DNA of 64,000 nt from a virus: the IMG/VR virus record IMGVR_UViG_3300044641_005643; one strand, given 5' to 3'. The translations under genes were made by a program, and so were the position numbers. Below, piece after piece: positions 52,042 to 64,000 of this stretch. A model generated the notes under the pieces. The model was not told where the DNA came from, made no database searches, and worked only from the letters and a program-made list of their open reading frames with translations. How positions within the stretch are numbered: position 1 is the first letter of the stretch; the number at the start of each line of letters is the position of its first letter.

Positions 52042-52118
52042 TGGTTGCAGGAGTCAGATTCGAACTGACGATCTCCAGGTTATGAGCCTAGCGGGATGAC
52101 CAACTTCCCTATCCTGCG
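52042..52118 (-). tRNA. tRNA-fMet (CAT)
   Basis: cloverleaf, C1:A72 mismatch, encoded CCA. Confidence 0.9.
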
Positions 52119-52178
52119 ATTGTTTATCTAAAGCGTTTTAGCAATTGCTTGATACGCCATCTAATGTAATAGGGCACT

Positions 52179-52382
52179 TCACGCAACGGAATTGGTAACA
52201 TCTTCGATCCTTTTGTTACGTTTATAAGCAAGATATTCATCAAATGTAATTGGAATCCAACCCATTAATGCTGTAACATATCCCATTAGTGCTAAACTAT
52301 TGTCTGTGTCGTAAGCAGTAAACACATTCCAGATACAAGCAAATACTACAAAAAAAGGCAAACCTACTCGTAGATACTTCAT
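52179..52382 (-). CDS. small membrane protein
   Basis: two TM segments, AAGGAG RBS. Confidence 0.6.
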   Translation of the reverse strand: MKYLRVGLPFFVVFACIWNVFTAYDTDNSLALMGYVTALMGWIPITFDEYLAYKRNKRIEDVTNSVA

Positions 52383-52408
52383 GACACACTCCTTGAAAAA
52401 AATAAATT

Positions 52409-52482
52409 TGGCTACCCCGCACGGATTCGAACCGCGGCTAAGAATTTTGGAGATTCCTGTGCTACCGCTACACTACGGGGTA
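52409..52482 (-). tRNA. tRNA-Trp (CCA)
   Basis: cloverleaf, CCA end. Confidence 0.93.
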
Positions 52483-52502
52483 ATGTCCTTACAATTACTA
52501 AA

Positions 52503-52745
52503 TCAATACTTGTTCAGTCTTTCTCTAATATTATCCATGCTTTCTTGAATGCTTTCGTCCATTTTTAGTCGGCTAAGCATGAGTCCATACATGGTCCAAA
52601 TCAAAAACACACCCAGCAAACCGGCAAAGATCAATGTTGCATCAGCTGCAAAAAAATGAGCCAATGACACAACAACAAATACACCTGCAAAAATTGCAGC
52701 CAACCAACCAACGGTATATAATGCTGCCTTAAGTCTAATATCCAT
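52503..52745 (-). CDS. small membrane protein
   Basis: two TM segments, AGGAG RBS. Confidence 0.65.
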   Translation of the reverse strand: MDIRLKAALYTVGWLAAIFAGVFVVVSLAHFFAADATLIFAGLLGVFLIWTMYGLMLSRLKMDESIQESMDNIRERLNKY

Positions 52746-52801
52746 AAAAAACTCCTAGTTAGTTAATGTACTTGACATTTTACTTGAAGTTCTAATTTGT
52801 G

Positions 52802-53122
52802 TCAATGGTAGTGGCCTTGGAAGCAGTGCCGAACTTCGTGCCCTAGTTCGTGCCCGTTTGGTCGTTTTTTGGTTATGATAGTGCAGACACTGCCTTGCCA
52901 AAAACTACAGGCTTCTACACTAATATTAATGCCCCCGAGCCCTCTACGGCGACTTTCTTGGTCGCATGCCTGATTGATATTGTCCGCATAAATCCAGGTC
53001 AGCTGCACAGTTTCATACTTGTTCTTTTTTGCATCAAACTTGGCCATGGGATCTGCCCACTCTTGAGCCACAGAATTGGTTGCAAAAAAAGCAATTGCAA
53101 AAATAGCAACTAGTTGTTTCAT
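52802..53122 (-). CDS. secreted protein with HExxH zincin-like motif
   Basis: signal peptide; HELGHEVRH; GGAG RBS. Confidence 0.55.
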   Translation of the reverse strand: MKQLVAIFAIAFFATNSVAQEWADPMAKFDAKKNKYETVQLTWIYADNINQACDQESRRRGLGGINISVEACSFWQGSVCTIITKKRPNGHELGHEVRHCFQGHYH

Positions 53123-53152
53123 TCGTAACTCCATGTTTATTAACATACTAGT

Positions 53153-53181
53153 ATTATAGCAAAATGGGTCTTTATGGTCAA
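53153..53181 (-). promoter_or_regulatory. sigma70-type early promoter (near-duplicate of 56782..56810)
   Basis: TTGACC-N17-TATAAT; shared cccattttgcTATAATac core. Confidence 0.75.
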
Positions 53182-53182
53182 C

Positions 53183-53476
53183 TCAAACTTCGTTGCTATC
53201 TTTGTAATATTTCGCCTGCTTGTGCCTGCGTTCTTGCACAGTTTCTTCGCCGAAAAACTTGCGGGGATTGCCGCACATGGCGCACTTGGGATCACCACAA
53301 TTCAAAATCTTGGTTTTGTGATGCCGATGTGGTTGCAGCATAAAAGGCAGTTTGCTCATTGCTGAACTTAATTTATGATAACCGTAGTTTTTAGCTAACT
53401 GTAATTGCCTTTGAATTTTTGTTTCTTTTTGATGGAGTCTTTCACCGTGTTTGATTTTTTCTTGTGCGTCTGACAT
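53183..53476 (-). CDS. basic hypothetical protein with CxxxxCxxC motif
   Basis: CGDPKCAMCGNPRK; AAGGAG RBS. Confidence 0.7.
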   Translation of the reverse strand: MSDAQEKIKHGERLHQKETKIQRQLQLAKNYGYHKLSSAMSKLPFMLQPHRHHKTKILNCGDPKCAMCGNPRKFFGEETVQERRHKQAKYYKDSNEV

Positions 53477-53494
53477 ATGGCTTTCTCCTTGTTT

Positions 53495-53582
53495 TGGCGG
53501 AAGTGGTGGGATTCGAACTCACGGAGCCTTTCAGCTCGACAGTTTTCAAGACTGCTCCAATAGACCACTCTGGCACACTTCC
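53495..53582 (-). tRNA. tRNA-Ser (TGA)
   Basis: long variable arm, G73, CCA. Confidence 0.93.
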
Positions 53583-53583
53583 T

Positions 53584-53820
53584 TTATTTGGACCAGGCCA
53601 GCACAAACAGTGTGCGGTCTTGATCCCATTTAAATGCTACACCTATATTGTATATTGCAGGACAATCGTGATAGGCCCAACGGGCGTATCTGGGACCTAC
53701 AGATTCGCGTAGCCAATCCTCAATCAACAACAAACCGTTGATCCAATCCATTTGATCTGATTGGATTGAGGGCCACGGAATTCGGGCATGATAAGGGAAT
53801 GTGTGCCAATCCACTAACAT
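53584..53820 (-). CDS. hypothetical protein
   Basis: TAAATA-N5-ATG; lies between tRNAs. Confidence 0.6.
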   Translation of the reverse strand: MLVDWHTFPYHARIPWPSIQSDQMDWINGLLLIEDWLRESVGPRYARWAYHDCPAIYNIGVAFKWDQDRTLFVLAWSK

Positions 53821-53831
53821 ACCGATATTTA

Positions 53832-53909
53832 TGGAGCAACGGGCGTGATTCGAACACGCGGTTTTCAGGATTTGCAGTCCCGTGCATTGGGCCTCTCTGC
53901 CACCGTTGC
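53832..53909 (-). tRNA. tRNA-Cys (GCA)
   Basis: cloverleaf, U73, CCA. Confidence 0.9.
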
Positions 53910-53917
53910 ATTAATTT

Positions 53918-54400
53918 TTATTTGACAGGCATTTTTATACCCAGAATCTTACAAACCTTGTTGGCATCTACATCAAAAACATTTTTAACGATGGTATCTA
54001 TGGTTTCTCGATCAAAATCATGAATTGATCTATAAAGCCAAGATAGATTTTTACAGTATCGATTGGCATGAAACCAAATTTCTTCTTGTAGTTCTTGATA
54101 GGTGCGATTGTTGGTACCCCATGGATCAGAACCATTTGGCACCAATCCCCATTCTCGTATTACGAATCTAACAAATGATAAATCTTGATCTAAACAATTT
54201 TGGTACCATTCCTCTCTATATTTTTTGGATTTGTACCAACAATGGTTCCAATTAGGCTTTTGAAGAGTGGCTTCGGTACGATTTTTTGTTCTTAAATATT
54301 CAGCATCACGAATTAGTTCTGGAGTCAAACCCTTTTTGTGTTGTTCTAAAATATTTTGCTTATCTATTGTAATGGCATCATGCAACGACATTGAACGCAT
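53918..54400 (-). CDS. hypothetical protein
   Basis: AAGGA RBS; promoter TTGACC-N17-TATAAT at 54429-54457. Confidence 0.65.
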   Translation of the reverse strand: MRSMSLHDAITIDKQNILEQHKKGLTPELIRDAEYLRTKNRTEATLQKPNWNHCWYKSKKYREEWYQNCLDQDLSFVRFVIREWGLVPNGSDPWGTNNRTYQELQEEIWFHANRYCKNLSWLYRSIHDFDRETIDTIVKNVFDVDANKVCKILGIKMPVK

Positions 54401-54459
54401 AATAATCCTTTAGCTTGATTGAACGAACATTATAATACAACAATCAATTAAGGTCAATC

Positions 54460-54534
54460 TGGTCCGGCGTAGATGAATCGAACACCTATTCTAGAGGTAG
54501 AAGCTCTATGTATTATCCATTATACGAACGCCAG
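54460..54534 (-). tRNA. tRNA-Arg (TCT)
   Basis: cloverleaf, CCA. Confidence 0.9.
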
Positions 54535-54539
54535 AATTT

Positions 54540-54689
54540 TTAACTTGGTATTACCTTGGGTATGTAAGGCACATTTCTCGGACCGTGTCGTTGTTCGAAT
54601 AACATTCGAGCTTCTGTTAAGTCTTTGGCATACACACGGTCCTTGACATCACCTTGGGGTGTTCTTACAGTTGTTTCGTACATGGGCAT
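54540..54689 (-). CDS. 49-aa hypothetical protein
   Basis: MPMYETTVRTPQG...; AGGA RBS; upstream part of the tracked ORF overlaps tRNAs. Confidence 0.6.
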   Translation of the reverse strand: MPMYETTVRTPQGDVKDRVYAKDLTEARMLFEQRHGPRNVPYIPKVIPS

Positions 54690-54708
54690 AACATATTTCC
54701 TATAACAA

Positions 54709-54794
54709 TGGTGGGCCGGGTCGGGCTCGAACCGACATGGCCTTTCGGACTGAATTATGAGTTCAGGGCATCCCACCAATAGTGCTTCCGGCCC
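54709..54794 (-). tRNA. tRNA with CAT anticodon and long variable arm (Ile2-like; identity uncertain)
   Basis: GGGCCGG acceptor, A73, CAT anticodon, variable hairpin CC-GAAA-GG. Confidence 0.75.
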
Positions 54795-54801
54795 ACGAAA
54801 C

Positions 54802-54885
54802 TGGTGCGACTGGTCGGACTCGAACCAACATGCCTTGCGGCGAGGGATTTTAAATCCCTTGAGTATACCATTTCTCCACAGTCGC
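54802..54885 (-). tRNA. tRNA-Leu (TAA)
   Basis: type II cloverleaf, CCA. Confidence 0.93.
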
Positions 54886-54893
54886 AATATACT

Positions 54894-54969
54894 TGGTCTC
54901 CCTAGAAAGATTTGAACTTCCACCGCCTGGTCCCAAACCAGGTACGCTGCCAGATTACGCCATAGGGAG
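54894..54969 (-). tRNA. tRNA-Pro (TGG)
   Basis: cloverleaf, CCA. Confidence 0.92.
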
Positions 54970-54974
54970 TATTA

Positions 54975-55202
54975 CTAATCATCATCCTCGTTGCTATTAA
55001 AGTATGCGACAATTCGACTACGAGCCTCTTCTTCTGTCAAGGCCGGAATGGCCACTGTAGCCAATCCGTTTTTGATTCGGATATCAAACGGAACCACTCC
55101 ATTGGGCATCCAATTTTCTTCCACTGGTACAGTTATGACAAACTCCTTCAAGTTCATCATTCTCGTCAAGACCTCTTTTGTTGTATCGTCAAAATTGGAC
55201 AT
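54975..55202 (-). CDS. hypothetical protein
   Basis: AAGGA RBS. Confidence 0.6.
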   Translation of the reverse strand: MSNFDDTTKEVLTRMMNLKEFVITVPVEENWMPNGVVPFDIRIKNGLATVAIPALTEEEARSRIVAYFNSNEDDD

Positions 55203-55213
55203 ATCTAATCCTT

Positions 55214-55287
55214 TGGTGCCCCTTGACAGAATCGAACTGCCATCAGAGGATTACAAATCCACTGTATTACCATTATACTAAAAGGGC
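55214..55287 (-). tRNA. tRNA-Thr (TGT)
   Basis: cloverleaf, CCA. Confidence 0.92.
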
Positions 55288-55293
55288 CTAACT

Positions 55294-55385
55294 TGGCGGA
55301 GATAGTTGGATTCGAACCAACGGTAGAGTATAATCCCTACGACGGTTTAGCAAACCGCTGCCTTAAGCCTCTCAGCCATATCTCC
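55294..55385 (-). tRNA. tRNA-Ser (GCT)
   Basis: long variable arm, G73, CCA. Confidence 0.93.
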
Positions 55386-55393
55386 TTAATAAC

Positions 55394-55422
55394 ATTATAT
55401 ATGCTGTTTATGGTACTGTCAA
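55394..55422 (-). promoter_or_regulatory. perfect sigma70 promoter for a tRNA block
   Basis: TTGACA-N17-TATAAT just upstream of tRNA-Ser. Confidence 0.8.
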
Positions 55423-55425
55423 TAT

Positions 55426-56028
55426 TTACAAAACAGGACCGTTACCATTTCTAAAGCCTATAGTGCCGCCCTCAGCTTCGATGCGTTTGATCACATCTTC
55501 AAACAAGATAGGAGCGAAGTCAGTTTGTTCTACGCATACACAATGATAGCGTGGGTCGATGCGTTCTCTAACACCCCACTCCATGAACTGCATTGTGGAA
55601 CTGGCTCGCTGCATCACACGGCCACCATGCAAGTGTCCGTGAATATTAACACCAAATCTACCAAGGCTATCTTCGTGCATGGGAATATGACTCAAGATCA
55701 TGCCGTTCATGACATGATATCCACGTACATCGCGGAAATACTTGGTGTATTCCTCTAGTGCAAAGATGTCATGATTACCTTTGATAAGAACTTTGTCTCC
55801 GTTTAGTCTTGCCAGTGTAGGCAAGGCCTTTTTGTTAATCACAACATCACCTAGGTGATACACTTTGTCCGTGGGTCTAACACGCTCGTTCCATAGACGG
55901 ATCATAGCCTCATCCATTTCCTCAGGCGTGTCCCAAGGACGCAGTTTAGTGACACCATCGTTGCGGACAAAACGGCAAACGCCAGCGTGACCAAAATGCG
56001 TGTCACTCGTTAAAAAAGTTGCTGGCAT
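55426..56028 (-). CDS. calcineurin-like metallophosphoesterase
   Basis: SDTHFGH, HLGD, GNHD, HGHLH. Confidence 0.9.
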   Translation of the reverse strand: MPATFLTSDTHFGHAGVCRFVRNDGVTKLRPWDTPEEMDEAMIRLWNERVRPTDKVYHLGDVVINKKALPTLARLNGDKVLIKGNHDIFALEEYTKYFRDVRGYHVMNGMILSHIPMHEDSLGRFGVNIHGHLHGGRVMQRASSTMQFMEWGVRERIDPRYHCVCVEQTDFAPILFEDVIKRIEAEGGTIGFRNGNGPVL

Positions 56029-56042
56029 TTGGTTCTCCTATT

Positions 56043-56264
56043 TTAAGCAATCGCTCCTGCGGCCTCTGCCGCCAATCGTTTAATGGCACGGCCTGCGGCT
56101 TCGCGACTGTTGGTACATGCATAATCGTCGCTCAAACTATTAAAACCGTGATATAACACCCACTCACCATCCCGCAACCATTCTACTCGAATATCGTAGG
56201 CACGTTCAAACGGTGAGCCTTCATGTACGATTCGTACCGGACCCCAATCATGTGCAATATACAT
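56043..56264 (-). CDS. hypothetical protein
   Basis: TAATG coupling with the upstream ORF. Confidence 0.55.
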   Translation of the reverse strand: MYIAHDWGPVRIVHEGSPFERAYDIRVEWLRDGEWVLYHGFNSLSDDYACTNSREAAGRAIKRLAAEAAGAIA

Positions 56265-56422
56265 TATATCACCCCACAAGCTTCATAAAATCGAGACTGA
56301 TCAAATCTTGGATTTGTTCTAGCACAGGTCCGTGCCATGGCCTCGGCTACCATAACTCTAGTTTCTAAGTCTTGAATCTTTGCAATTGTTTCAGCAATCG
56401 CTTCAAAATCTTTTCTAGTCAT
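56264..56422 (-). CDS. 52-aa hypothetical protein
   Basis: MTRKDFEAIA...NPRFDQSRFYEAC; AAGGAGG RBS; not in the ORF track. Confidence 0.7.
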   Translation of the reverse strand: MTRKDFEAIAETIAKIQDLETRVMVAEAMARTCARTNPRFDQSRFYEACGVI

Positions 56423-56431
56423 ACGGCCTCC

Positions 56432-56752
56432 TTATGCTAGTTCAAGTTCTCGGGCAGGAAAAGTAATCTTACCTTCGTACTCGAGCTGATCGCGCTCAAA
56501 ATCAGTAAGGTAATCATCCTCGACAACAGACCAATCAACTATGTGCTCGCGCACATAATCGTTATCCGATTCAACCTTTGGCCGCACCAGATCTACTACA
56601 ATACCAGGGGCATAACGAGTAGGGTCAAAGTTGCGAATTACATAATCGCTGCCGCCTTTGGCCTTCCAGTAAGCATCATCGCCCTTGCCAATGGAACCAT
56701 CTTCGTTCCATGCGTAGTTTTCGTAAACTTGGGTAGTGATAAGTAGCTTCAT
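56432..56752 (-). CDS. conserved early hypothetical protein
   Basis: TQ..ENY...YWK.KGG motif; AGGAG RBS. Confidence 0.7.
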   Translation of the reverse strand: MKLLITTQVYENYAWNEDGSIGKGDDAYWKAKGGSDYVIRNFDPTRYAPGIVVDLVRPKVESDNDYVREHIVDWSVVEDDYLTDFERDQLEYEGKITFPARELELA

Positions 56753-56781
56753 TTTTGGCTCCTGTTAATTACTATACTCGT

Positions 56782-56877
56782 ATTATAGCAAAATGGGCCA
56801 TTATGGTCTATCATTTGTTTTAGTTGCAAGAATAGCAACACTTGTTGCTATATTCGTAATGTTGCTCAAAAGCAACA
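56782..56877 (-). promoter_or_regulatory. early promoter with upstream palindromic operator-like repeats
   Basis: TAGACC-N17-TATAAT; GTTGC-N6/7-GCAAC repeats at 56822-56877. Confidence 0.6.
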
Positions 56878-56883
56878 GTTGAG

Positions 56884-56957
56884 TGGAGCGGGATATCGGA
56901 ATCGAACCGATGACTAGAGCTTGGAAGGCTTTCGTTTTACCATTAAACTAATCCCGC
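56884..56957 (-). tRNA. tRNA-Gly (TCC)
   Basis: cloverleaf, U73, CCA. Confidence 0.93.
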
Positions 56958-56966
56958 ATTTAAACT

Positions 56967-57041
56967 TGGCGGTCCCAACGGGAGTCGAACCCGTCTCTGC
57001 GCCGTGACAGGGCGCCATACTTACCGATATACTATAGGACC
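56967..57041 (-). tRNA. tRNA-Asp (GTC)
   Basis: cloverleaf, G73, CCA. Confidence 0.93.
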
Positions 57042-57046
57042 TTGTC

Positions 57047-57123
57047 TGGCTCCGAGAATAGGAATCGAACCTATCTGATGAACGGATTAACAGTCCGCTG
57101 CCCCACCTTGTGGCCGTCTCGGA
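57047..57123 (-). tRNA. tRNA-Asn (GTT)
   Basis: cloverleaf, G73, CCA. Confidence 0.88.
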
Positions 57124-57130
57124 ATAATAC

Positions 57131-57205
57131 TGGTGGGCGGTGAGAGATTCGAACTCCCGACCCGTTCCGTGTAAAGGAACTCTTCTACCGCTGAAATAAC
57201 CGCCC
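57131..57205 (-). tRNA. tRNA-Val (TAC)
   Basis: cloverleaf, CCA. Confidence 0.93.
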
Positions 57206-57207
57206 GA

Positions 57208-57492
57208 TCAAATATATCTATCTATGTTCATACCAATGGCGCTGGCACGTTGCACCAGCCGCTGTTCTTTAATACTTTCGCCAAATGCATACTGCCTTAG
57301 GAATTCTGTGTCTTTGTCATAGTTGTAATTTCGTTGCAGTCTGTTAGCTTCTTGTATGGCCATGAGATTGGCCATTTCTCTTATCTTGTGTTCTTCAATG
57401 TCGCGACGCTTCATGTCCATGAGCACTTGCACTCGCTGACCAATCATTTGGTAATCATTTAAATATGCATGTGGTACTCGATATATAACCAT
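57208..57492 (-). CDS. hypothetical protein
   Basis: AGGAG RBS before MVIYR. Confidence 0.6.
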   Translation of the reverse strand: MVIYRVPHAYLNDYQMIGQRVQVLMDMKRRDIEEHKIREMANLMAIQEANRLQRNYNYDKDTEFLRQYAFGESIKEQRLVQRASAIGMNIDRYI

Positions 57493-57505
57493 ATTTGCTC
57501 CTGAT

Positions 57506-57590
57506 TGGTGGGGATGGAAGGATTCGCACCTACTCACCCGAAAGAACGGATTTACAGTCCGCCGCCACTCTCTAACTTAGCCGCATCCCC
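57506..57590 (-). tRNA. tRNA-Tyr (GTA)
   Basis: type II, CCA; atypical T-loop TGCGAAT. Confidence 0.85.
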
Positions 57591-57599
57591 ATTTAATTT

Positions 57600-57675
57600 T
57601 GGTGGAGGTGGACGGTTACGATCCGACTGCCTCCTGCTTGCAAAGCAGGCGCTCTCCCAATTGAGCTACACCCCC
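57600..57675 (-). tRNA. tRNA-Ala (TGC)
   Basis: G3:U70, CCA; T-loop ATCGTAA. Confidence 0.92.
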
Positions 57676-57678
57676 TGA

Positions 57679-57930
57679 TTAATTTTCTCTAACGTCTTTG
57701 GCATCAACACAAGTTTCACCTTTGAACACATATACATCGCTATCAACTCTGAGTTGTTCAAATACTTGATTATTCACACATATAAATGGATCTTTGTGAT
57801 TTTCCATATAAAAGAATACTCCATAACCAATACCCGCCAATACCATTAGAATGGGGATATATTTTAGATACTTTACAATTTCGGGCATGGCACCCAAAAT
57901 TTGTGGCAAGTTTTTGAGCAGTTCTTTCAT
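57679..57930 (-). CDS. membrane-anchored hypothetical protein
   Basis: TAAATA-N5-ATG; one TM segment. Confidence 0.6.
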   Translation of the reverse strand: MKELLKNLPQILGAMPEIVKYLKYIPILMVLAGIGYGVFFYMENHKDPFICVNNQVFEQLRVDSDVYVFKGETCVDAKDVREN

Positions 57931-57943
57931 GCTCGTATTTATG

Positions 57944-58018
57944 TGGCACACCGTAGGAGAATCGAACTCCTCTTACCTGCGTGAAAGGCGGGTGTCCTAA
58001 CCGATAGACGAACGGTGC
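57944..58018 (-). tRNA. tRNA-Glu (TTC)
   Basis: cloverleaf, CCA. Confidence 0.92.
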
Positions 58019-58029
58019 ATAAAATTTAA

Positions 58030-58330
58030 TGCTAACAAGGAACTGACTGTTACATGATGCCGAAGTCATTACTGCATCAAACCCTTGCTGAACCCGCATT
58101 GCGGGACGATTCGCACTCAATCGTTTTTGATCTAAATCTTGCTTAGGCCACGCTTTTCCACAGTCGCCCCTATGCTGGAGTTGTTACCCTGTCCATCCCA
58201 TTTATTCTCGTGTCTGTGTGCAGTTGGGATTCTGCCTAGCAGTGTCTGAGGGGTTGCCTCGCTAACGGTTTACTGCCACCGGGTCAATTATCGTCGCCAC
58301 ACGCTACTTTCAGGAAAGTAGTAACCGGAA
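58030..58330 (-). ncRNA. candidate structured ncRNA(s) inside the tRNA array
   Basis: about 300 nt without a credible ORF; many stems and a possible AUCCCA/UGGGAU pseudoknot. Confidence 0.5.
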
Positions 58331-58331
58331 A

Positions 58332-58412
58332 CCATATTGAAACACACTCAATACTCTTATACGCCCGTGCCTTGCAAGCCGTTAAAATATAAGCGAATGT
58401 GTTTTAATATGG
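58332..58412 (-). repeat. long imperfect inverted repeat directly 3' of tRNA-Leu
   Basis: ccatattgaaacacactc / gaatgtgttttaatatgg plus inner cttata/tataag. Confidence 0.7.
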
Positions 58413-58494
58413 TGCGGATGAAAGGAATCGAACCTTCACGTATTTCTACGCTAGAACCTAAATCTAGTGCGTCTACCTATTTCGCCACATCCGC
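58410..58494 (-). tRNA. tRNA-Leu (TAG)
   Basis: type II cloverleaf, CCA. Confidence 0.93.
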
Positions 58495-58539
58495 ATTTAC
58501 TGCTCAATTGTTAATGAACGTTTACTACACTATTTCATT

Positions 58540-58568
58540 ATTATAGCAATTTGTTCATTTTAGGTCTA
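58540..58568 (-). promoter_or_regulatory. sigma70-type promoter
   Basis: TAGACC-N17-TATAAT with extended -10 TG. Confidence 0.65.
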
Positions 58569-58615
58569 CTATTATGTGTGTTGTATTTTAGCCACACAGT
58601 TGCTATTTTGTTAAC

Positions 58616-58691
58616 TGGTAGTAGAGGAGGGACTCGAACCCACGATACGCACCGTATGAAGGTGCTGCATTGGCCGCTATGCTACTCTACC
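58616..58691 (-). tRNA. tRNA-Met (CAT), elongator-type
   Basis: cloverleaf, paired 1:72, CCA. Confidence 0.85.
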
Positions 58692-58692
58692 G

Positions 58693-58769
58693 TGGTACCC
58701 ACTCTTGGAATTGAACCAAGGACCCCAACCTTATCAAGATTGTGCTCTCACCAACTGAGCTAAGTGGGC
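58693..58769 (-). tRNA. tRNA-Ile (GAT)
   Basis: cloverleaf, CCA. Confidence 0.92.
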
Positions 58770-58775
58770 ATAAAC

Positions 58776-58850
58776 TGGCCGGTCCTGACAGATTCGAACT
58801 GCCGACAGCTGGTTTCGAAGACCAGAACTCTTCCGCTGAACTAAGGACCG
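58776..58850 (-). tRNA. tRNA-Arg (TCG)
   Basis: cloverleaf, CCA. Confidence 0.9.
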
Positions 58851-58852
58851 TA

Positions 58853-58928
58853 TGGGGTATCCGACCGGTATCGATCCGGTACTACCTGTTTCACAGACAA
58901 GTGTGCAGGCCACTACACTACGGACACC
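58853..58928 (-). tRNA. tRNA-His (GTG)
   Basis: G-1:C73, CCA; T-loop ATCGATA. Confidence 0.92.
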
Positions 58929-58933
58929 ACGGG

Positions 58934-59004
58934 CAGGGATACTAGGATTTGAACCTAGACTAACAGAGTCAAAGTCTGCGGTGCTGCCGTTACACTATAT
59001 CCCA
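58934..59004 (-). tRNA. tRNA-Gln (TTG)
   Basis: cloverleaf, U1:U72, G73; no encoded CCA (reads CCC). Confidence 0.88.
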
Positions 59005-59011
59005 ACTGAAC

Positions 59012-59593
59012 TTATAAATTTCCTAATAATCTTTTTGCTCTTTCATAATTATTACCTTTTGCTGCAATACCTGCTTTCAATAAGCCTTGCCGTATATTAG
59101 GCGATTCATTTATGCACTCAAGTAAAAACTCATCAGTTATATCATTAGCACCGTTCTTAGCAGGTTTATTTCTGCCTCTCCAAGTATCTGTGATACTATG
59201 ACAATTTGGACATAATCCTTCTAAGTTTTCTCTAGTATTGTTTTGATTATTGCCATCCTTATGCTCTAACTCCAGGACAATCTTAAATCCCTGCCACTCA
59301 CTAATACCGCAACAATTACAACGATGTTCTTGTTCTTCAAACACTCTACGGCGTTTATTTTCCATTCCAAGTTCTTCAAACGGAGTCGCTAGGTACTTTT
59401 GAAGTCTAGTTTCTCTTAGTTTTTGTGCTGCTTTTTCCCTATCATAGGGAGTTTGTTTAGAAGGTTTTCCTTTTAGTGCTAAACTTTTTTTAAGTTTTGC
59501 TTCTTCTGAGAATACTCTACTGTTAGCACATGTTCTTGAACAATACACTCCTACTTTTGTATGTTCTTTATTGCATTTAGGACATTGTTTCAT
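59012..59593 (-). CDS. HNH homing endonuclease (free-standing, in the tRNA array)
   Basis: N-terminal CxxC...CSxxC zinc finger; LEHKDGN..NN..ENL..LCPNCH. Confidence 0.9.
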   Translation of the reverse strand: MKQCPKCNKEHTKVGVYCSRTCANSRVFSEEAKLKKSLALKGKPSKQTPYDREKAAQKLRETRLQKYLATPFEELGMENKRRRVFEEQEHRCNCCGISEWQGFKIVLELEHKDGNNQNNTRENLEGLCPNCHSITDTWRGRNKPAKNGANDITDEFLLECINESPNIRQGLLKAGIAAKGNNYERAKRLLGNL

Positions 59594-59647
59594 ATCGAAC
59601 CTTGTTAAATATAACTTTATTTATCTAAGTTCGATATGAAACAATGT
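59582..59647 (-). promoter_or_regulatory. translation-blocking hairpin with a late promoter in its loop
   Basis: perfect 19-bp inverted repeat covering the HNH ATG; TAAATA at 59618-59623. Confidence 0.75.
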
Positions 59648-59650
59648 AAA

Positions 59651-59725
59651 TGGTGAGGGCAGAGAATTACGATATCTCGACCTACTGGTTAAAAGCCAGT
59701 TGCTCTTCCTCTGAGCTATGCCCCC
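59651..59725 (-). tRNA. tRNA-Lys (TTT)
   Basis: cloverleaf, CCA; T-loop ATCGTAA. Confidence 0.9.
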
Positions 59726-59941
59726 ATTCGAATTCCATATAGTTGGAACATCAATGCTGCTAATTTATGCTTGTTTTGATATGTCCAACCATATCGTAGC
59801 AAGCCCTTCTTGACACTGTCCATGACAGGATCTCCTCTAAAACTGTAATGTACTACTTCGATGAATTTTTGTCAAGCCATAATAACAAAACAAATACTCC
59901 TAATACAACTGTCACAGCCCCATTTTGTTTCCTCCTCGAAG

Positions 59942-60118
59942 TTATTTTAACGGAATACAACCCGCGCTAGTTCTATAATTTTCAATGCGAATAGTTTTTA
60001 CTGCTTGTTCTCGGGCTCTCATACAAGTTTCATAATCATTGTACTTCGCCGTAATACTACCACTGCTAGTCGTGGTACCGGGGGTAGCACTGAACAATGA
60101 AATTACTAGTATCCACAT
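59942..60118 (-). CDS. small secreted or membrane protein
   Basis: AAGGAG RBS before MWILVISL; Cys pair; pattern similar to 51040..51237. Confidence 0.6.
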   Translation of the reverse strand: MWILVISLFSATPGTTTSSGSITAKYNDYETCMRAREQAVKTIRIENYRTSAGCIPLK

Positions 60119-60177
60119 ATAGTCTCCTTTAAATAAATCTATAATTTTTAACAAATACAACAAAGTTAAATATCTTA

Positions 60178-60813
60178 ATGTATGCCACCATTACAAAAGA
60201 AAAATTTTTATCAGAAGCAGAAATAAATTTTATTGTTAATGATATCTATAATAATGGTTTTCATTATAATGACATAGTTGATAATAAATTACACAGTTTT
60301 TATAAACCATGGCGATATTACAATAAAAATTTTGAACTTATAAAGAACATTCTAGATCCAAAATTGAAAGAAATTTTGGACTATGATTTCGTCATTGATC
60401 ACAGTCATATGCTAGACAGTCACGTACCCTATAGTATTCACACAGATTATTGGCAAGTAAAAAACTTTAGGCAATTAGAGCCGGCTCACTCAATTATAAT
60501 TCCATTAGACAATTACAATTCGAATACAGTAATTTTTAATGAAAACTCAAAAATCAAAAGACTAGATGAATACATAAACCAAGAAAATCCTCAGCGTAAT
60601 ATCACAAAAATCTCAACAGACCTCGTAAAAAATTACCTTTCTCATATAGATAAAGATCTATTAGATTATCTATCAATAAAAGAAATTTTAAAATGGAACA
60701 AAGGTTGCCTTATTGCATTTGATAGAAAATATTTTCATTGTAGTGACAATTATTCTGCCAACGGTTTAAGTGGCAAAAAAGCCTTGATTTTATGGACTTC
60801 AACAAAAATTTAA
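60178..60813 (+). CDS. putative 2OG-Fe(II) oxygenase-like protein
   Basis: HTD...YFHC pattern; AT-rich; TAAATA-N5-ATG. Confidence 0.5.
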   Translation: MYATITKEKFLSEAEINFIVNDIYNNGFHYNDIVDNKLHSFYKPWRYYNKNFELIKNILDPKLKEILDYDFVIDHSHMLDSHVPYSIHTDYWQVKNFRQLEPAHSIIIPLDNYNSNTVIFNENSKIKRLDEYINQENPQRNITKISTDLVKNYLSHIDKDLLDYLSIKEILKWNKGCLIAFDRKYFHCSDNYSANGLSGKKALILWTSTKI

Positions 60814-60822
60814 AAATTTATA

Positions 60823-60896
60823 TGGAGCAGGATACCAGAGTCGAACTGGTGACTGGACGTTGGCAACGTGCCGTTTTACCCCTAAACTAATCCTGC
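60823..60896 (-). tRNA. tRNA-Gly (GCC)
   Basis: cloverleaf, U73, CCA. Confidence 0.92.
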
Positions 60897-60904
60897 TTTG
60901 TTCT

Positions 60905-60999
60905 TGGTAGTAGGCCAGGGATTCGAACCCTGTCGTTCCAGCCCATCTGACCAGTCTCCACGGTTTATAAGTCCGCGCCGCATACCAATGCTGCCTACC
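60905..60999 (-). tRNA. non-canonical tRNA(-like) RNA, TAT anticodon (Ile)
   Basis: acceptor stem, T arm and CCA normal; 4-nt D loop, very long variable region. Confidence 0.65.
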
Positions 61000-61080
61000 A
61001 TTCGCACACTCTGAATACAAAGTGTATGATTGAACAGACTATTTTATGTAAAATGCAAAAAAATAAAAATAAATATAAAC

Positions 61081-61857
61081 ATGAATAAAACCCAGTTTTT
61101 ATCAATAAATCAGCATGTAATCAAAGATAAAATAGTTTTAGACTTGGCTTGTCATATTGGAGTTAGCACAAAAATTATTCAAGATTTAGGTGCAAAATAT
61201 GTTTATGGTCTCGAAGGTCGAGAAAATTTAGTGCAAACTGCTCTACAAAGTGTCAATGGTAATGTCGAATTTATCGTAGGAGACATGACAGATAGTGCAG
61301 TTATTCTTCCATTGGTTAAAAAAAGCCAGACCATAGTCTGTATAGGATCATTATATCATTTATATGATCATTTCAGATTTTTCCAATATATTTTCCAACC
61401 ACATGTGGAATACTGTATTATAAGTACTTTGTTCGGGCCAGAATCAATTAATCCAGAAATGTGGTGGGGTTTCGAAAACACTCATGATATCCATAACGGG
61501 TTTTACAAAAATTTACCTATTATCCCACATGGCACTCCCAATCTTTCCTGGATTCTAAATTCAGCAAAAATTTTTGGATTTGAATGTGATTGGATACACT
61601 GTTATGGCAAAAAAGTGACCAAAGCAATTTCCCAAATCACAGTAGAGGAATATTTAAGTGTAGCTGGAGACGATTGGCCTCCGTATGAAGATATAATAAG
61701 TGGTCAAAAACTTCCTGTTTTTGTACAGCAAGAGCTTGATCAAATGTTACATGATTATCCTTCTGAAGATCGCAGAATGATCTTGAGACTATATAATTCC
61801 AAGCTAATCAAATCCAAACCAATACAATTAAAAGAAAATTATAAATGGCCGTTTTGA
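61081..61857 (+). CDS. class I SAM-dependent methyltransferase
   Basis: VLDLACHIG motif I, GLEGR, GSLYH; TAAATA-N5-ATG at 61081. Confidence 0.75.
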   Translation: MNKTQFLSINQHVIKDKIVLDLACHIGVSTKIIQDLGAKYVYGLEGRENLVQTALQSVNGNVEFIVGDMTDSAVILPLVKKSQTIVCIGSLYHLYDHFRFFQYIFQPHVEYCIISTLFGPESINPEMWWGFENTHDIHNGFYKNLPIIPHGTPNLSWILNSAKIFGFECDWIHCYGKKVTKAISQITVEEYLSVAGDDWPPYEDIISGQKLPVFVQQELDQMLHDYPSEDRRMILRLYNSKLIKSKPIQLKENYKWPF

Positions 61858-61884
61858 ATTACACAGATTTAGATAAATTAGTAT

Positions 61885-62070
61885 CAGACTAGTTGCTACG
61901 GTGATAGCAGTGGCCGCGGTCAATGCGGGTGGGATTACAAGCCCCCAAATGCTCTTCTAATCTGCTCAATCATTCCCGTTTTACTCAGCTGTTACCGCCA
62001 GCAGTTTCATCAGGGGCTCCGCCCGTTTGGCATGTTCGAGTGCTGCCGCGGCCTCGTTCCGCATTCACTT
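61885..62070 (-). ncRNA. candidate pseudoknotted ncRNA
   Basis: AAUGCGG/CCGCAUU and GGCCGCGG/CCGCGGCC long-range stems in crossing order; GC-rich, non-coding. Confidence 0.5.
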
Positions 62071-62072
62071 TG

Positions 62073-62237
62073 CTACTTGTGTCGTCGAGTTAGACGCAAT
62101 TTTTCTAATTGTTCTGATTGCTCGCGCAATCTTTGCATTTTACCTTTTAACAATTCTTCAAGCAATCTATCGTTAAAAACAAAATCACGTTCTTCTAACT
62201 TTTTTTGAAACGACACGATGTCTTGTTCGTTTGTCAT
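62073..62237 (-). CDS. 54-aa charged helical protein downstream of the attenuator
   Basis: MTNEQDIVSFQKKLEERDF...; AAGGTGGAG upstream; not in the ORF track. Confidence 0.5.
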   Translation of the reverse strand: MTNEQDIVSFQKKLEERDFVFNDRLLEELLKGKMQRLREQSEQLEKLRLTRRHK

Positions 62238-62250
62238 CTCCACCTTTATA

Positions 62251-62286
62251 AAACAAAAACCCCAGGGTTTTGATTCCTGGGGTTTT
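62251..62286 (-). terminator. attenuator terminator
   Basis: AAACCCCAGG-loop-CCUGGGGUUUUUGUUUU. Confidence 0.85.
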
Positions 62287-62308
62287 ATAGAATTTAGTTC
62301 TACTACAC

Positions 62309-62422
62309 TTAGGTTCTATATTTCCCCAGCACACGATTACTATCACGTGTAATCATACCCCAGTAGGCCACTTGCCCCGATTCGGGTTGTATAAACGCTT
62401 TATGTAATAGTGCGGAGTTCAT
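62309..62422 (-). CDS. 37-aa putative leader peptide
   Basis: MNSALLHKAFIQPESGQVAYWGMITRDSNRVLGKYRT*, between a promoter and a terminator; last codons form the antiterminator arm. Confidence 0.6.
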   Translation of the reverse strand: MNSALLHKAFIQPESGQVAYWGMITRDSNRVLGKYRT

Positions 62423-62432
62423 TATAGTCTCT

Positions 62433-62461
62433 ATTGTAGTTTTATTTATGTTTGTTGTCAA
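62433..62461 (-). promoter_or_regulatory. sigma70 promoter with an embedded TAAATA late-type motif
   Basis: TTGACA-N17-TACAAT; spacer contains ATAAATA. Confidence 0.75.
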
Positions 62462-62549
62462 TAGATATTTTTCCAAATTTTGTTGCTTTTCTGTTAATTA
62501 ACAAACAATTAACGATTTGGTTTTGAAGTCACGATTGGTAAATAATTAT

Positions 62550-63032
62550 ATGTTAAAACACATTCATCACATCGTTCCTAAGTATATGGGAGGAACTGAC
62601 GATCCGTCAAATCTTGTGGAACTCACAGTAGAAGAACACGCCGAGGCTCACAGATTGTTATATGAGCAGCACGGAAATTGGCAAGACAGAATAGCTTGGT
62701 TATCACTAAGCGGACAAATTGGAAAAGATGAAGCTATACAAGAGGCCAGAGGTGCTGCTAATCGTGGAAGAAAAAGAACACCAGAACAATTAGAAAATAT
62801 GCGTAAAGCATCAAAAGCAAGAGCAGAACGACATATGTCTGATCCTGAGTTTTGGGCTGAGATTAATAGAAAAAGATCAGAATCACATAAAGGTAAGAAA
62901 AAATCCGCAGAGCATATGGCAAATTGGGCTGCTTCTCGTAAAGGACATGTAGTGTCAGAAGAAACACGAGAAAAAATTAGAAAAACACTTTCTGAAACTA
63001 GAGCCAAAAAGAAAGCCCTACTCGAGGGCTAA
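62550..63032 (+). CDS. HNH endonuclease with NUMOD3-like DNA-binding repeats
   Basis: HHIVPK..GG.DD..NL..LT..EH...H; KGKKKS.EH and SEETREKI repeats; TAAATA-N5-ATG. Confidence 0.88.
   Translation: MLKHIHHIVPKYMGGTDDPSNLVELTVEEHAEAHRLLYEQHGNWQDRIAWLSLSGQIGKDEAIQEARGAANRGRKRTPEQLENMRKASKARAERHMSDPEFWAEINRKRSESHKGKKKSAEHMANWAASRKGHVVSEETREKIRKTLSETRAKKKALLEG
63006..63030 (-). terminator. probable terminator after pqqA
   Basis: AGCCCU-loop-AGGGCU followed by UUCUUUUU. Confidence 0.55.
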
Positions 63033-63051
63033 CTTTTGAATAAACTTTATA

Positions 63052-63126
63052 TTAGCGGTTAGCAATATAAAGGGTAATCTCGAAGCCGAAACGCATATCG
63101 TTTGCTTGTGGTGTAGTCCATGCCAT
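63052..63126 (-). CDS. pqqA: pyrroloquinoline quinone precursor peptide PqqA
   Basis: MAWTTPQANDMRFGFEITLYIANR*: W-x-x-P, R-F-G-F-E-x-x-x-Y; AAGGAG RBS 8 nt upstream; not in the ORF track. Confidence 0.95.
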   Translation of the reverse strand: MAWTTPQANDMRFGFEITLYIANR

Positions 63127-63238
63127 TTTTATTTCTCCTTGAAAAAATAACATACTGCATTAGTATGTATCTCTATTGTAAGACAAATCTGGCACAAACC
63201 ACATCCATACAGTCATGATTTTACGCTACGTAAAATCA

Positions 63239-64000
63239 TTAGCCTTTTTTGAACTTGGCAGCTTCTTCACTGCCGCCGGTGGCATTGCCCTTGCTGTAAC
63301 TATGAGCACCAACACCAGCCAGCTGTCCATTTTGCACAACCAGGTATTCGTTACGAATTGGACGTCCTTCAAACCAGCACTCCAACACTTCACGCACACC
63401 TGCTGCATATCTGGTTTGAGCACTTAGACTGGTGCCAGATATGTGTGGTGTCATGCCATGATTGGGCATGCTACGCCAAGGATGATCCTGTGGTGCCGGT
63501 TGTGGGAACCATACATCACCAGCATAGCCTGCCAGCTGACCAGTTTCCAGTGCTCGAGCCACAGCATCACGATCGCAGATTTTACCTCTAGCAGTATTCA
63601 CAATATAGCTACCACGTTTCATCTTGCTGATCATGGCTTCATCGAACAGGTGTTCGGTTTCGGGATGCAATGGGCAGTTGATGGTCACAATATCTACCAC
63701 CTTGACCATGCTTTCCACACTGTCGTGCCAGGTCAAGTTCAATTCCTGTTCCACCAGCTCAGGCAAACGATGACGATCATAATAGTGCAAATGCACACCA
63801 AATGGCTTTAACAATCTCAGTGCTCGCAGACCAATTCTACCAGCTGCCACTGTGCCCACATGCATGCCTTCGATGTCATAGCTGCGTGTAACGCAATCGG
63901 CGATGTTCCAGCCGCCGTTGATCACTTGTTGATAACTGGGAATATAATTTCTTACCAGACTCAACATCTGCATCACAATGTGCTCGGCCACCGAATTACT
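63239..64000 (-). CDS. fdh: NAD-dependent formate dehydrogenase (5' end outside the window)
   Basis: VAEH, GGWNIADC, AAGRIG, YDRH, NTARG, WFPQPAP.DHPWR, PHISGTSLSAQ.RYAAG. Confidence 0.95.
   Translation of the reverse strand, partial: SNSVAEHIVMQMLSLVRNYIPSYQQVINGGWNIADCVTRSYDIEGMHVGTVAAGRIGLRALRLLKPFGVHLHYYDRHRLPELVEQELNLTWHDSVESMVKVVDIVTINCPLHPETEHLFDEAMISKMKRGSYIVNTARGKICDRDAVARALETGQLAGYAGDVWFPQPAPQDHPWRSMPNHGMTPHISGTSLSAQTRYAAGVREVLECWFEGRPIRNEYLVVQNGQLAGVGAHSYSKGNATGGSEEAAKFKKG

Follow-up and report, generated by a model that had tools for sequence, protein, structure and literature searches.

In the 64-kb stretch of viral DNA analysed here (IMG/VR record IMGVR_UViG_3300044641_005643; the whole stretch is called the window in the following), the tRNA region is headed by a short leader on the minus strand which, judging from its sequence and from those of its relatives, is probably a trp-type, ribosome-mediated transcription attenuator that samples every amino acid. 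The progress of a ribosome along a leader open reading frame (ORF) would decide between an antiterminator and an intrinsic terminator, and with it whether transcription enters a small gene, a structured non-coding RNA (ncRNA) and the first tRNA genes. The evidence consists of the conservation of each part of the unit in related phages, of a reading frame that stays open while the encoded peptide changes, of constraints acting on the RNA, and of an amino-acid coverage above that of segments of the same length from the proteins of this phage.

The phage genes in the window lie nearly all on the minus strand, including 25 tRNA genes (52042-60896, all minus strand), and the leader unit is located upstream of these on the same strand. 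The family-B DNA polymerase encoded in the window shares 51% identity with that of Sinorhizobium phage Phosso, the closest polymerase among cultured phages, and 43% with that of Agrobacterium phage Atu_ph07, both of which are jumbo phages of ~470-490 kb; the sequencing runs that contain the stretch are lake-water metagenomes. The window phage is an uncultured freshwater jumbo phage. Relatives were recovered via the small gene downstream of the terminator (54 amino acids (aa) from ATG 62237), which yielded 10 viral-contig loci and 39 freshwater metagenome loci, designated by L numbers where a single locus is meant. Alignment A2 comprises 31 distinct sequences, which are mutually related and to which all counts given as x/31 refer; five more were found later, bringing the number of distinct relatives to ~36.

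Promoter, leader ORF, antiterminator, terminator and downstream gene occur in identical order and with identical spacing at 10/10 viral-contig loci and at 36/39 metagenome loci, the latter count leaving out L033, L042 and L043, where the upstream sequence was too short or was not inspected. An earlier, sequence-only reading of the window had described, on the minus strand, a near-consensus promoter, a 37-codon ORF about 4 nucleotides (nt) from the expected transcription start, and a strong terminator. All of these are present, and the architecture is not a peculiarity of one genome: the ORF is open and in frame, and terminator, antiterminator and anti-antiterminator are kept, in the ~36 relatives.

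A DNA search with 801 nt around the leader and a tblastn search with the downstream small protein, both run against the same 50,697 GenBank phage records, gave zero matches, and thus the exact element is present in no cultured phage of this collection. The Rfam covariance models, which include Trp_leader, His_leader, Leu_leader, Thr_leader, Phe_leader, T-box and others, left the leader unmatched at E values up to 1 for the window and up to 0.5 for five relatives; a weak Phe_leader match in L014 concerns sequence ~1 kb distant from the leader.

An open frame with nearly complete amino-acid coverage

The leader peptide of the window contains 19 of the 20 amino acids, lacking only cysteine, and the sequence-only reading had seen in this the composition expected for sensing the loss of any tRNA. 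The relatives make the point more strongly than the window itself. All 20 amino acids are found in 22/31 leaders and 19 in the other 9/31, at peptide lengths of 37-44 residues, while segments of the same length from the proteins of this phage average 15.5-15.9 amino acids (P = 0.02-0.04 for at least 19 and 0.003-0.005 for 20). When the deep clades are treated separately, coverage is 20 in the main clade, 20 in L007 and 19 in L011/L047. A column shuffle of the leader residues gave 18.68 +/- 0.13, compared with 19.71 observed, and 0/5000 shuffles reached as high a value; the sequences being related, such shuffles overstate independence, and the result is no true probability. In addition, a lysine, glutamate, phenylalanine, histidine or cysteine that has been lost reappears in another alignment column, and this relocation is difficult to account for by anything but selection for completeness. 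The first 28-35 codons, in which a stalled ribosome is predicted to permit read-through, still contain 17-20 amino acids. No residue is enriched in the leaders, and the run of regulatory codons that characterizes ordinary attenuators is absent; therefore, the element is classed as a variant of the leader-peptide attenuators and not as an ordinary member.

The reading frame is maintained throughout. In-frame stop codons occur in 0/31 sequences, whereas frames 1 and 2 contain, on average, 3.5 and 4.8 stops, and none of the 163 distinct single-site variants of the leader creates a stop (rough null P ~6e-4). Leader insertions and deletions (indels) in the main clade measure 3 or 12 nt, that is, multiples of three, and the length of the ORF in the relatives ranges from 37 to 44 codons. 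The peptide is much looser. The ratio of nonsynonymous to synonymous substitution rates (dN/dS) is ~0.6 for the leader at a proportion of synonymous differences (pS) of 0.285, compared with a dN/dS of 0.19 at a pS of 0.42 for the adjacent gene of 54-56 aa, and the entropies at the three codon positions are 0.55/0.60/0.62 for the leader and 0.40/0.21/0.62 for the adjacent gene. In the clade of L011, L047 and L040, the peptide is largely different and the stop codon is shifted, yet frame, length and fold have been retained. These patterns point to selection on the open frame rather than on the peptide, with translation mattering more than its product, within an RNA that is itself constrained.

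The constraint on the RNA can be read from the codons around an invariant glycine. The codon preceding it always ends in G (CTG, CAG, ATG, TGG, CGG, TTG and TCG, encoding L, Q, M, W, R and S), and the glycine codon itself is GGG in 30/31 sequences (GGC in L039), though GGG is the rarest glycine codon in the phage genes (relative synonymous codon usage 0.17). Because NNG-GGG is kept whatever the first codon encodes, the pairing of this G-run with the CCCC of the terminator region is maintained as RNA.

The conserved frame might alternatively belong to a stand-alone small gene followed by a leaky terminator, that is, to a functional protein of 37-40 aa, with a terminator that simply keeps short and long transcripts in a constant proportion and a hairpin at the stop codon that stabilises the mRNA or tunes termination without any sensing. 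Terminators inside operons that give a fixed partial read-through are common, and the conservation of the ORF, in which several residues, such as L, H, Y-W and I-T-R, are nearly invariant, would be in line with such a gene. However, the best-conserved residues lie where RNA hairpins are conserved, the G-run is held as RNA irrespective of the residue encoded, a dN/dS of ~0.6 comes without an excess of change at third positions, and the L011/L047 clade has kept frame and layout with a largely different peptide. Moreover, 20 amino acids in 40 residues, together with the relocation of lost ones, would be unexpected for a folded or binding peptide, and we regard this explanation as unlikely.

Two more specific ideas about the codons of the leader were dropped. 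The mean codon usage of the leader lies only at the 8th percentile of gene windows from this phage, which reveals no clear rare-codon trap. A feedback loop between an AUA codon in the leader and an odd tRNA(UAU) gene at the head of the tRNA array was abandoned as a specific claim, because AUA is present in 25/31 leaders and is thus not invariant.

Promoter and competing RNA structures

The putative promoter of the leader is of the sigma-70 type, matches the consensus at 11/12 positions and ranks at the top of 20 promoter-like sites in the region 58000-64000. The number of such sites is no higher than in shuffles, and thus the reality of this promoter rests on its conservation across relatives: the hexamers are kept in 29/31 aligned relatives and additionally in L027, L040, L046 and L048, and deviating hexamers are found in L010 (-35 TAGACT) and in L044/L045 (-10 TACACT). 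The spacer contains ATAAATAA (62441-62448), which occurs a single time in the window, and its core TAAATAA is invariant in 31/31 aligned relatives. This conservation goes well beyond the needs of a spacer, and the motif could represent a second promoter type or a binding site. A T4-type late promoter in the ATAAATAA spacer was also considered and is doubtful, as [TG]ATAAATA occurs only six times in the window, at inconsistent distances to start codons.

In 24/31 relatives, the sequence ATGATG is found 7 nt past the -10 hexamer (6 nt in L016). At that spacing, the preferred purine start would be the A of the first AUG, and the leader mRNA is therefore probably leaderless. In the window, the ATG (62422) lies 10 nt past the -10 hexamer and ~3-4 nt past the expected start of the RNA, and no Shine-Dalgarno sequence was found at the leader ATG, with no room for one upstream.

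At the other end of the leader, the sequence-only reading had paired the last leader codons (62329-62314) with a segment (62292-62277) that takes the 5' arm of the terminator, and had described the two structures as mutually exclusive. Both statements hold. Folded alone, the antiterminator hairpin has an energy of -19.0 kcal/mol (z = -4.2; 0/200 shuffles as good), and in alignment A2, 92% of its cells are paired, compared with <=60% when the partners are slid against each other. The pairing is preserved with other letters in L007 (UUUGUAGA/UCUACAAA) and in L011 (UGGGGUCU/AGACCCCA). In the terminator, 99% of cells are paired in the 31 sequences, with one compensatory change from C-G to U-A in L034; its motif is single in the window and was overlooked by a simple terminator scan, its loop being longer than 8 nt. 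CCCCAG is common to both hairpins, and hence terminator and antiterminator exclude each other. The terminator hairpin sequence (62249-62283) was also seen to recur in several metagenome and metatranscriptome contigs with unlike flanks; related genomes probably employ this terminator module at other sites too.

Folded in silico as a whole, the leader reaches its minimum energy of -52.3 kcal/mol (z = -3.9) in a structure that contains the terminator and has the G-run paired to codons 2-4, which are thus predicted to act as an anti-antiterminator. When region 3 (Table 1) has not yet been made, the G-run pairs upstream in 23/31 sequences, in 20 of these with codons 2-4, and this pairing recurs in distant clades. 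When the 3' arm of the terminator is removed, the antiterminator appears in the minimum-energy fold of 31/31 sequences. The complete RNA favours the terminator conformer, with a median advantage of only 3.7 kcal/mol. The pairings 1:2, 2:3 and 3:4 are thus all conserved, and they are nearly balanced, as in the trp leader. An additional hairpin within the ORF has, together with its extension, 94.6% of its cells paired and five pairs that have changed on both sides; in the folding model, it belongs to the closed 1:2 conformer, and it may act as a pause hairpin.

A structure of this strength might also serve a purpose of its own. The leader could be an RNA-only element in which the ORF has no role: a riboswitch-like sensor, or a small RNA (sRNA) of ~170 nt that acts in trans and ends at the terminator. 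It could also be a terminated leader with a second job in trans, like rnTrpL in Sinorhizobium; attenuator-derived sRNAs are known, as described in an excerpt of PMC6614838. Apart from the z value of the fold, the constraint on synonymous sites and the conservation of the hairpins, with some covariation, are compatible with such an element. It is nevertheless quite improbable, given that the frame is open in all relatives, that indels are in frame and that none of the variants creates a stop; the amino-acid coverage would be left without an explanation if the leader were untranslated, and no Rfam family matches. A trans function of the leader RNA on top of attenuation is possible.

The proposed switch and the genes it would control

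In the proposed attenuator, the host RNA polymerase would start at the AUG of the 37-40-codon ORF or <=3 nt from it, and the RNA would comprise four segments: codons 2-4, the last six codons with the G-run, UUCUAUA-AAA-CCCCAG, and the 3' arm of the terminator. Without a ribosome, 1:2 and 3:4 would pair and transcription would stop. A ribosome that has started translation and is delayed within the first 28-31 codons would open 1:2 and leave segment 2 free, whereupon 2:3 would form first and result in read-through. A ribosome that arrives in time at the last ~9 codons or at the stop codon would cover segment 2, allowing 3:4 to form, and transcription would stop. With essentially every amino acid present once or twice in the leader, read-through would increase whichever codon class is decoded slowly, and it would enter the 54-56-aa gene, the structured ncRNA and the first tRNA genes.

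The distances in the leader fit this scheme. The G-run starts 10-19 nt before the stop codon (15-16 nt in 27/31 sequences), and the CCCC of the terminator follows 26-31 nt after the stop codon. A ribosome with its A site <=~4 codons before the G-run, or at the stop codon, would cover the 5' arm of the antiterminator and not the terminator, whereas a ribosome held earlier would leave that arm free. The footprint geometry is thus in keeping with the classical attenuation logic that the sequence-only reading had applied, namely that a ribosome at the stop codon leads to termination and an earlier stall to read-through.

The predicted default in the absence of a ribosome is less certain, as the antiterminator outcompetes 1:2 in 31/31 sequences without the terminator 3' arm and the G-run is poorly paired upstream in 8/31. 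Both observations would suit a translation-coupled switch of opposite or different logic, for example, one in which a Rho site is hidden or exposed, one that acts on RNA decay, or a two-state switch with read-through as the default in which only completed translation terminates. The conservation of a canonical intrinsic terminator with its U-tract, and the recurrence in distant clades of the 1:2 pairing with codons 2-4, speak against this and make it very unlikely. It should be noted that the response to stalling has the same sign in the two-state and the three-state versions.

Downstream of the attenuator, the 54-56-aa gene begins 18 nt past the terminator and is conserved with 58-79% identity in nine relatives; its low dN/dS reveals clear coding selection and marks it as a genuine gene. 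Such a short distance leaves no room for a promoter of its own, and thus its expression requires read-through of the terminator; as the gene can be transcribed in this way only, the terminator is argued to be conditional or partial. AlphaFold models the small protein as a two-helix hairpin (helix-loop-long-helix; predicted local distance difference test score, pLDDT, 85) with a basic C-terminal tail. Pfam and PHROGs gave no match for the leader peptide or the 54-56-aa protein, and an ESM Atlas feature search with the small protein gave no usable match; judging from the position of its gene, it may bind the adjacent ncRNA or tRNAs.

The ncRNA is ~250 nt long in the relatives and matches no Rfam family. 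In the window, it is split by an 850-base-pair (bp) insertion; in relatives, as well as in RNA and DNA contigs from lakes, position 61034 is joined directly to 61885, with a 7-nt ambiguous junction. The ncRNA is followed by an odd tRNA-like gene (60905-60999, minus strand) with a UAU anticodon, a long variable arm and an encoded CCA, which ARAGORN annotates as tRNA-Ile(tat) in relatives and missed in the window, and for which Rfam gave a weak tRNA-Sec match of 32 bits. The gene order in the relatives, all on one strand, is leader, 54-56-aa gene, ncRNA, odd tRNA(UAU), tRNA-Gly, Lys, Gln, His, Phe and so on; in the window, a second plus-strand gene is located between tRNA-Gly and tRNA-Lys. In L005, no terminator-like site was found on the leader strand for ~1.9 kb downstream. 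Metatranscriptome contigs from lakes (two studies, X19 and X20) span the 3' part of the leader with the terminator, the small gene, the ncRNA and the odd tRNA of relatives; they show no starts, ends or levels, carry-over of DNA is possible, and they were not counted as evidence for expression or read-through.

Several points weigh against the proposed attenuator, in addition to the relatedness of the aligned sequences that limits the shuffle tests. The terminator conformer is the more stable one at equilibrium, and an equilibrium scan with ribosome masks still favoured it at most positions; equilibrium energies alone do not reproduce the switch, and therefore the argument for it rests on the order and kinetics of folding. 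The antiterminator shows little covariation: a single pair has changed on both sides in the fixed alignment and most columns are invariant, so that in this hairpin, conservation due to coding cannot be fully separated from conservation due to structure. The sole cysteine in 15 relatives is located in the predicted termination zone, too near the G-run to signal read-through. The first ATG has been lost in 7/31 sequences, replaced by ATA, ATT or AAG (ATA in the window), and the resulting 5' leader of 3 nt is less favourable to leaderless initiation.

Two further points concern the reach of the control. The 850-bp insertion, with its gene on the opposite strand, parts the leader unit from the tRNA genes in the window, and promoter-like sites are found within the tRNA arrays of relatives, from which it follows that later tRNA blocks probably have promoters of their own. 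Thus, the control may extend no further than the 54-56-aa gene, the ncRNA and the first tRNAs, in line with the caution of the sequence-only reading that it may cover just the first part.

The same reading had proposed that the phage switches on these genes when host translation is attacked. The parts of an attenuator on which this proposal was built are conserved; host attack, however, is one possible trigger, and an ordinary shortage of tRNAs or amino acids would act alike. More tentatively, the leader may be a general sensor of decoding capacity, in which ribosomes would stall whenever a charged tRNA, no matter which, is lost, and in which the small protein, the ncRNA and the tRNAs would then be switched on. 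Such a loss could result from starvation, from codon-usage mismatch or from tRNA-cleaving defence nucleases of the host, and the leader would then be an inducible counter-measure to tRNA attack in a clade of freshwater jumbo phages, with perhaps an analogous device in Phosso; this extension is doubtful enough to be offered only as a possibility.

On the upstream side, the leader promoter of several relatives (L002, L010, L044-L048) follows immediately after pqqA and its terminator. As a separate observation, the phage PqqA (Pfam E = 4e-9) is encoded beside a formate-dehydrogenase-like 2-hydroxyacid dehydrogenase (63052-63126 and 63239-64000, minus strand), which suggests a methylotroph host and an auxiliary module of one-carbon (C1) metabolism.

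Table 1. Coordinates of the leader unit and its neighbours (window positions, except for the last row)
Feature	Position	Strand	Remarks
Sigma-70-type promoter (putative)	62433..62461	minus	TTGACA (62461-62456), 17-nt spacer, TACAAT (62438-62433)
Leader ORF (putatively translated)	62309..62422	minus	ATG 62422, TAA 62311-62309; 37 codons and stop
Region 1, codons 2-4, CUCCGCAC (predicted anti-antiterminator)	62410..62417	minus	Pairs with GUGC and G-run of region 2 in the minimum-energy fold
Internal hairpin GAUUAC...GUAAUC	62338..62361	minus	Within the I-T-R-D-S-N codons; consensus structure
Region 2, antiterminator 5' arm, CUGGGG AAA UAUAGAA	62314..62329	minus	Last six sense codons
Region 3, antiterminator 3' arm, UUCUAUA AAA CCCCAG	62277..62292	minus	Overlaps the terminator 5' arm
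Intrinsic terminator, AAAACCCCAGG, 9-nt loop, CCUGGGGUUUU(U)	62255..62286	minus	11-bp stem, U-tract; 5' arm 62286-62276, 3' arm 62266-62256, then Us
Putative gated gene 1, 54 aa from ATG 62237 (56 aa from GTG 62243)	62073..62237	minus	Strong ribosome-binding site
Putative gated product 2, 5' part of conserved structured GC-rich ncRNA	61885..62070	minus	No Rfam family
Insertion, 850 bp, methyltransferase-like gene (ORF 61030-61857)	61035..61884	plus	Absent in relatives; Pfam
ncRNA 3' end (~61034-61010), then odd 95-nt tRNA-like gene	60905..61034	minus	First array tRNA in relatives
HNH homing-endonuclease gene	62517-63032	plus	Inserted between pqqA and leader promoter in the window
Phosso unit (locus L052, 1869-2560)	PV764938.1 419668-420359		Before main tRNA array

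Comparison with known systems

To our knowledge, the regulation of phage tRNA genes is essentially unknown, and a literature search, the coverage of which was incomplete, revealed no publication on attenuation ahead of such genes. The presence of tRNA genes in phages has been explained by codon compensation and, lately, by the replacement of host tRNAs destroyed by defence nucleases, as put forward in excerpts of PMC10264068 and PMC10802454. If confirmed, the leader described here would place the transcription of a tRNA region under feedback control by the translation status of the infected cell, and it would mean that phages measure decoding capacity directly. Attenuation, so far tied to amino-acid and resistance genes, would be found to govern RNAs of the translation apparatus as well, and the compositional completeness of a peptide could itself be a selected trait. 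What is controlled, together with the selected completeness of the leader, makes the element one of high interest, and it could also serve as a compact natural reporter of slow decoding, whichever codon class is affected.

The enterobacterial leader-peptide attenuators comprise trpL, hisL, leuL, thrL, pheL and the ilv leaders, as well as pheM, the leader of pheST. The phage leader shares with them a short ORF adjacent to the promoter, four segments that can pair as 1:2, 2:3 and 3:4, and a terminator 5' arm that is shared with the antiterminator; as proposed here, it would also share the principle that the position of the ribosome picks the fold and that a stall leads to read-through. The differences lie in the peptide and in the setting. 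The phage leader has no run of a single amino acid and contains every amino acid about one to two times, it is phage-encoded and probably leaderless, and it would gate a small protein, an ncRNA and tRNAs, whereas the enterobacterial leaders have Shine-Dalgarno sequences and precede genes for biosynthetic enzymes.

A leaderless short ORF at the 5' end of a polycistronic transcript, acting as a sensor by ribosome pausing as is proposed for the phage leader, is also found among the polycysteine short ORFs of mycobacteria. According to excerpts of 10.1101/834739, these sense cysteine only, and their effect is on translation, through the unmasking of a ribosome-binding site, rather than via a terminator and an antiterminator as proposed for the phage leader.

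The nearest published analogue in logic appears to be the attenuator formed by the upstream ORF (uORF) of whiB7 in mycobacteria, in which efficient translation leads to termination and stress to antitermination, and in which the residues of the uORF set which starvations are sensed (PMC10274678). The phage leader resembles whiB7 and its Streptomyces counterpart wblC in having a long and diverse peptide, a Rho-independent terminator and a competing antiterminator (PMC10274678). However, the whiB7 uORF, in which alanine is enriched, controls a transcription factor of a cellular stress regulon, and it has no sequence relationship to the phage leader. Alanine occurs two to four times in the phage leaders, and the downstream gene does not encode a WhiB-family regulator, which places the element outside the whiB7/wblC group; in contrast to whiB7, the phage leader appears to have been selected for all 20 amino acids, and it would gate RNAs of the translation apparatus.

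Within phages, a comparable layout is present in Phosso. Its ORF has no detectable sequence similarity to the leader, is preceded by a 5' untranslated region with a Shine-Dalgarno-like site and starts with GTG, and two more promoter-like sites are located between the terminator and the tRNAs; with one genome examined, the unit is a lead rather than a tested relative. Nevertheless, as in the window phage, a promoter-like site, an ORF (here of 54 aa, with 19 amino acids), a terminator, a structured RNA and a tRNA gene, tRNA-Gly(gcc), are present, and a 10-bp antiterminator joins late codons of the ORF to the 5' arm of the terminator and encloses the stop codon. This analogous layout thus exists in a phage that is cultured and experimentally approachable.

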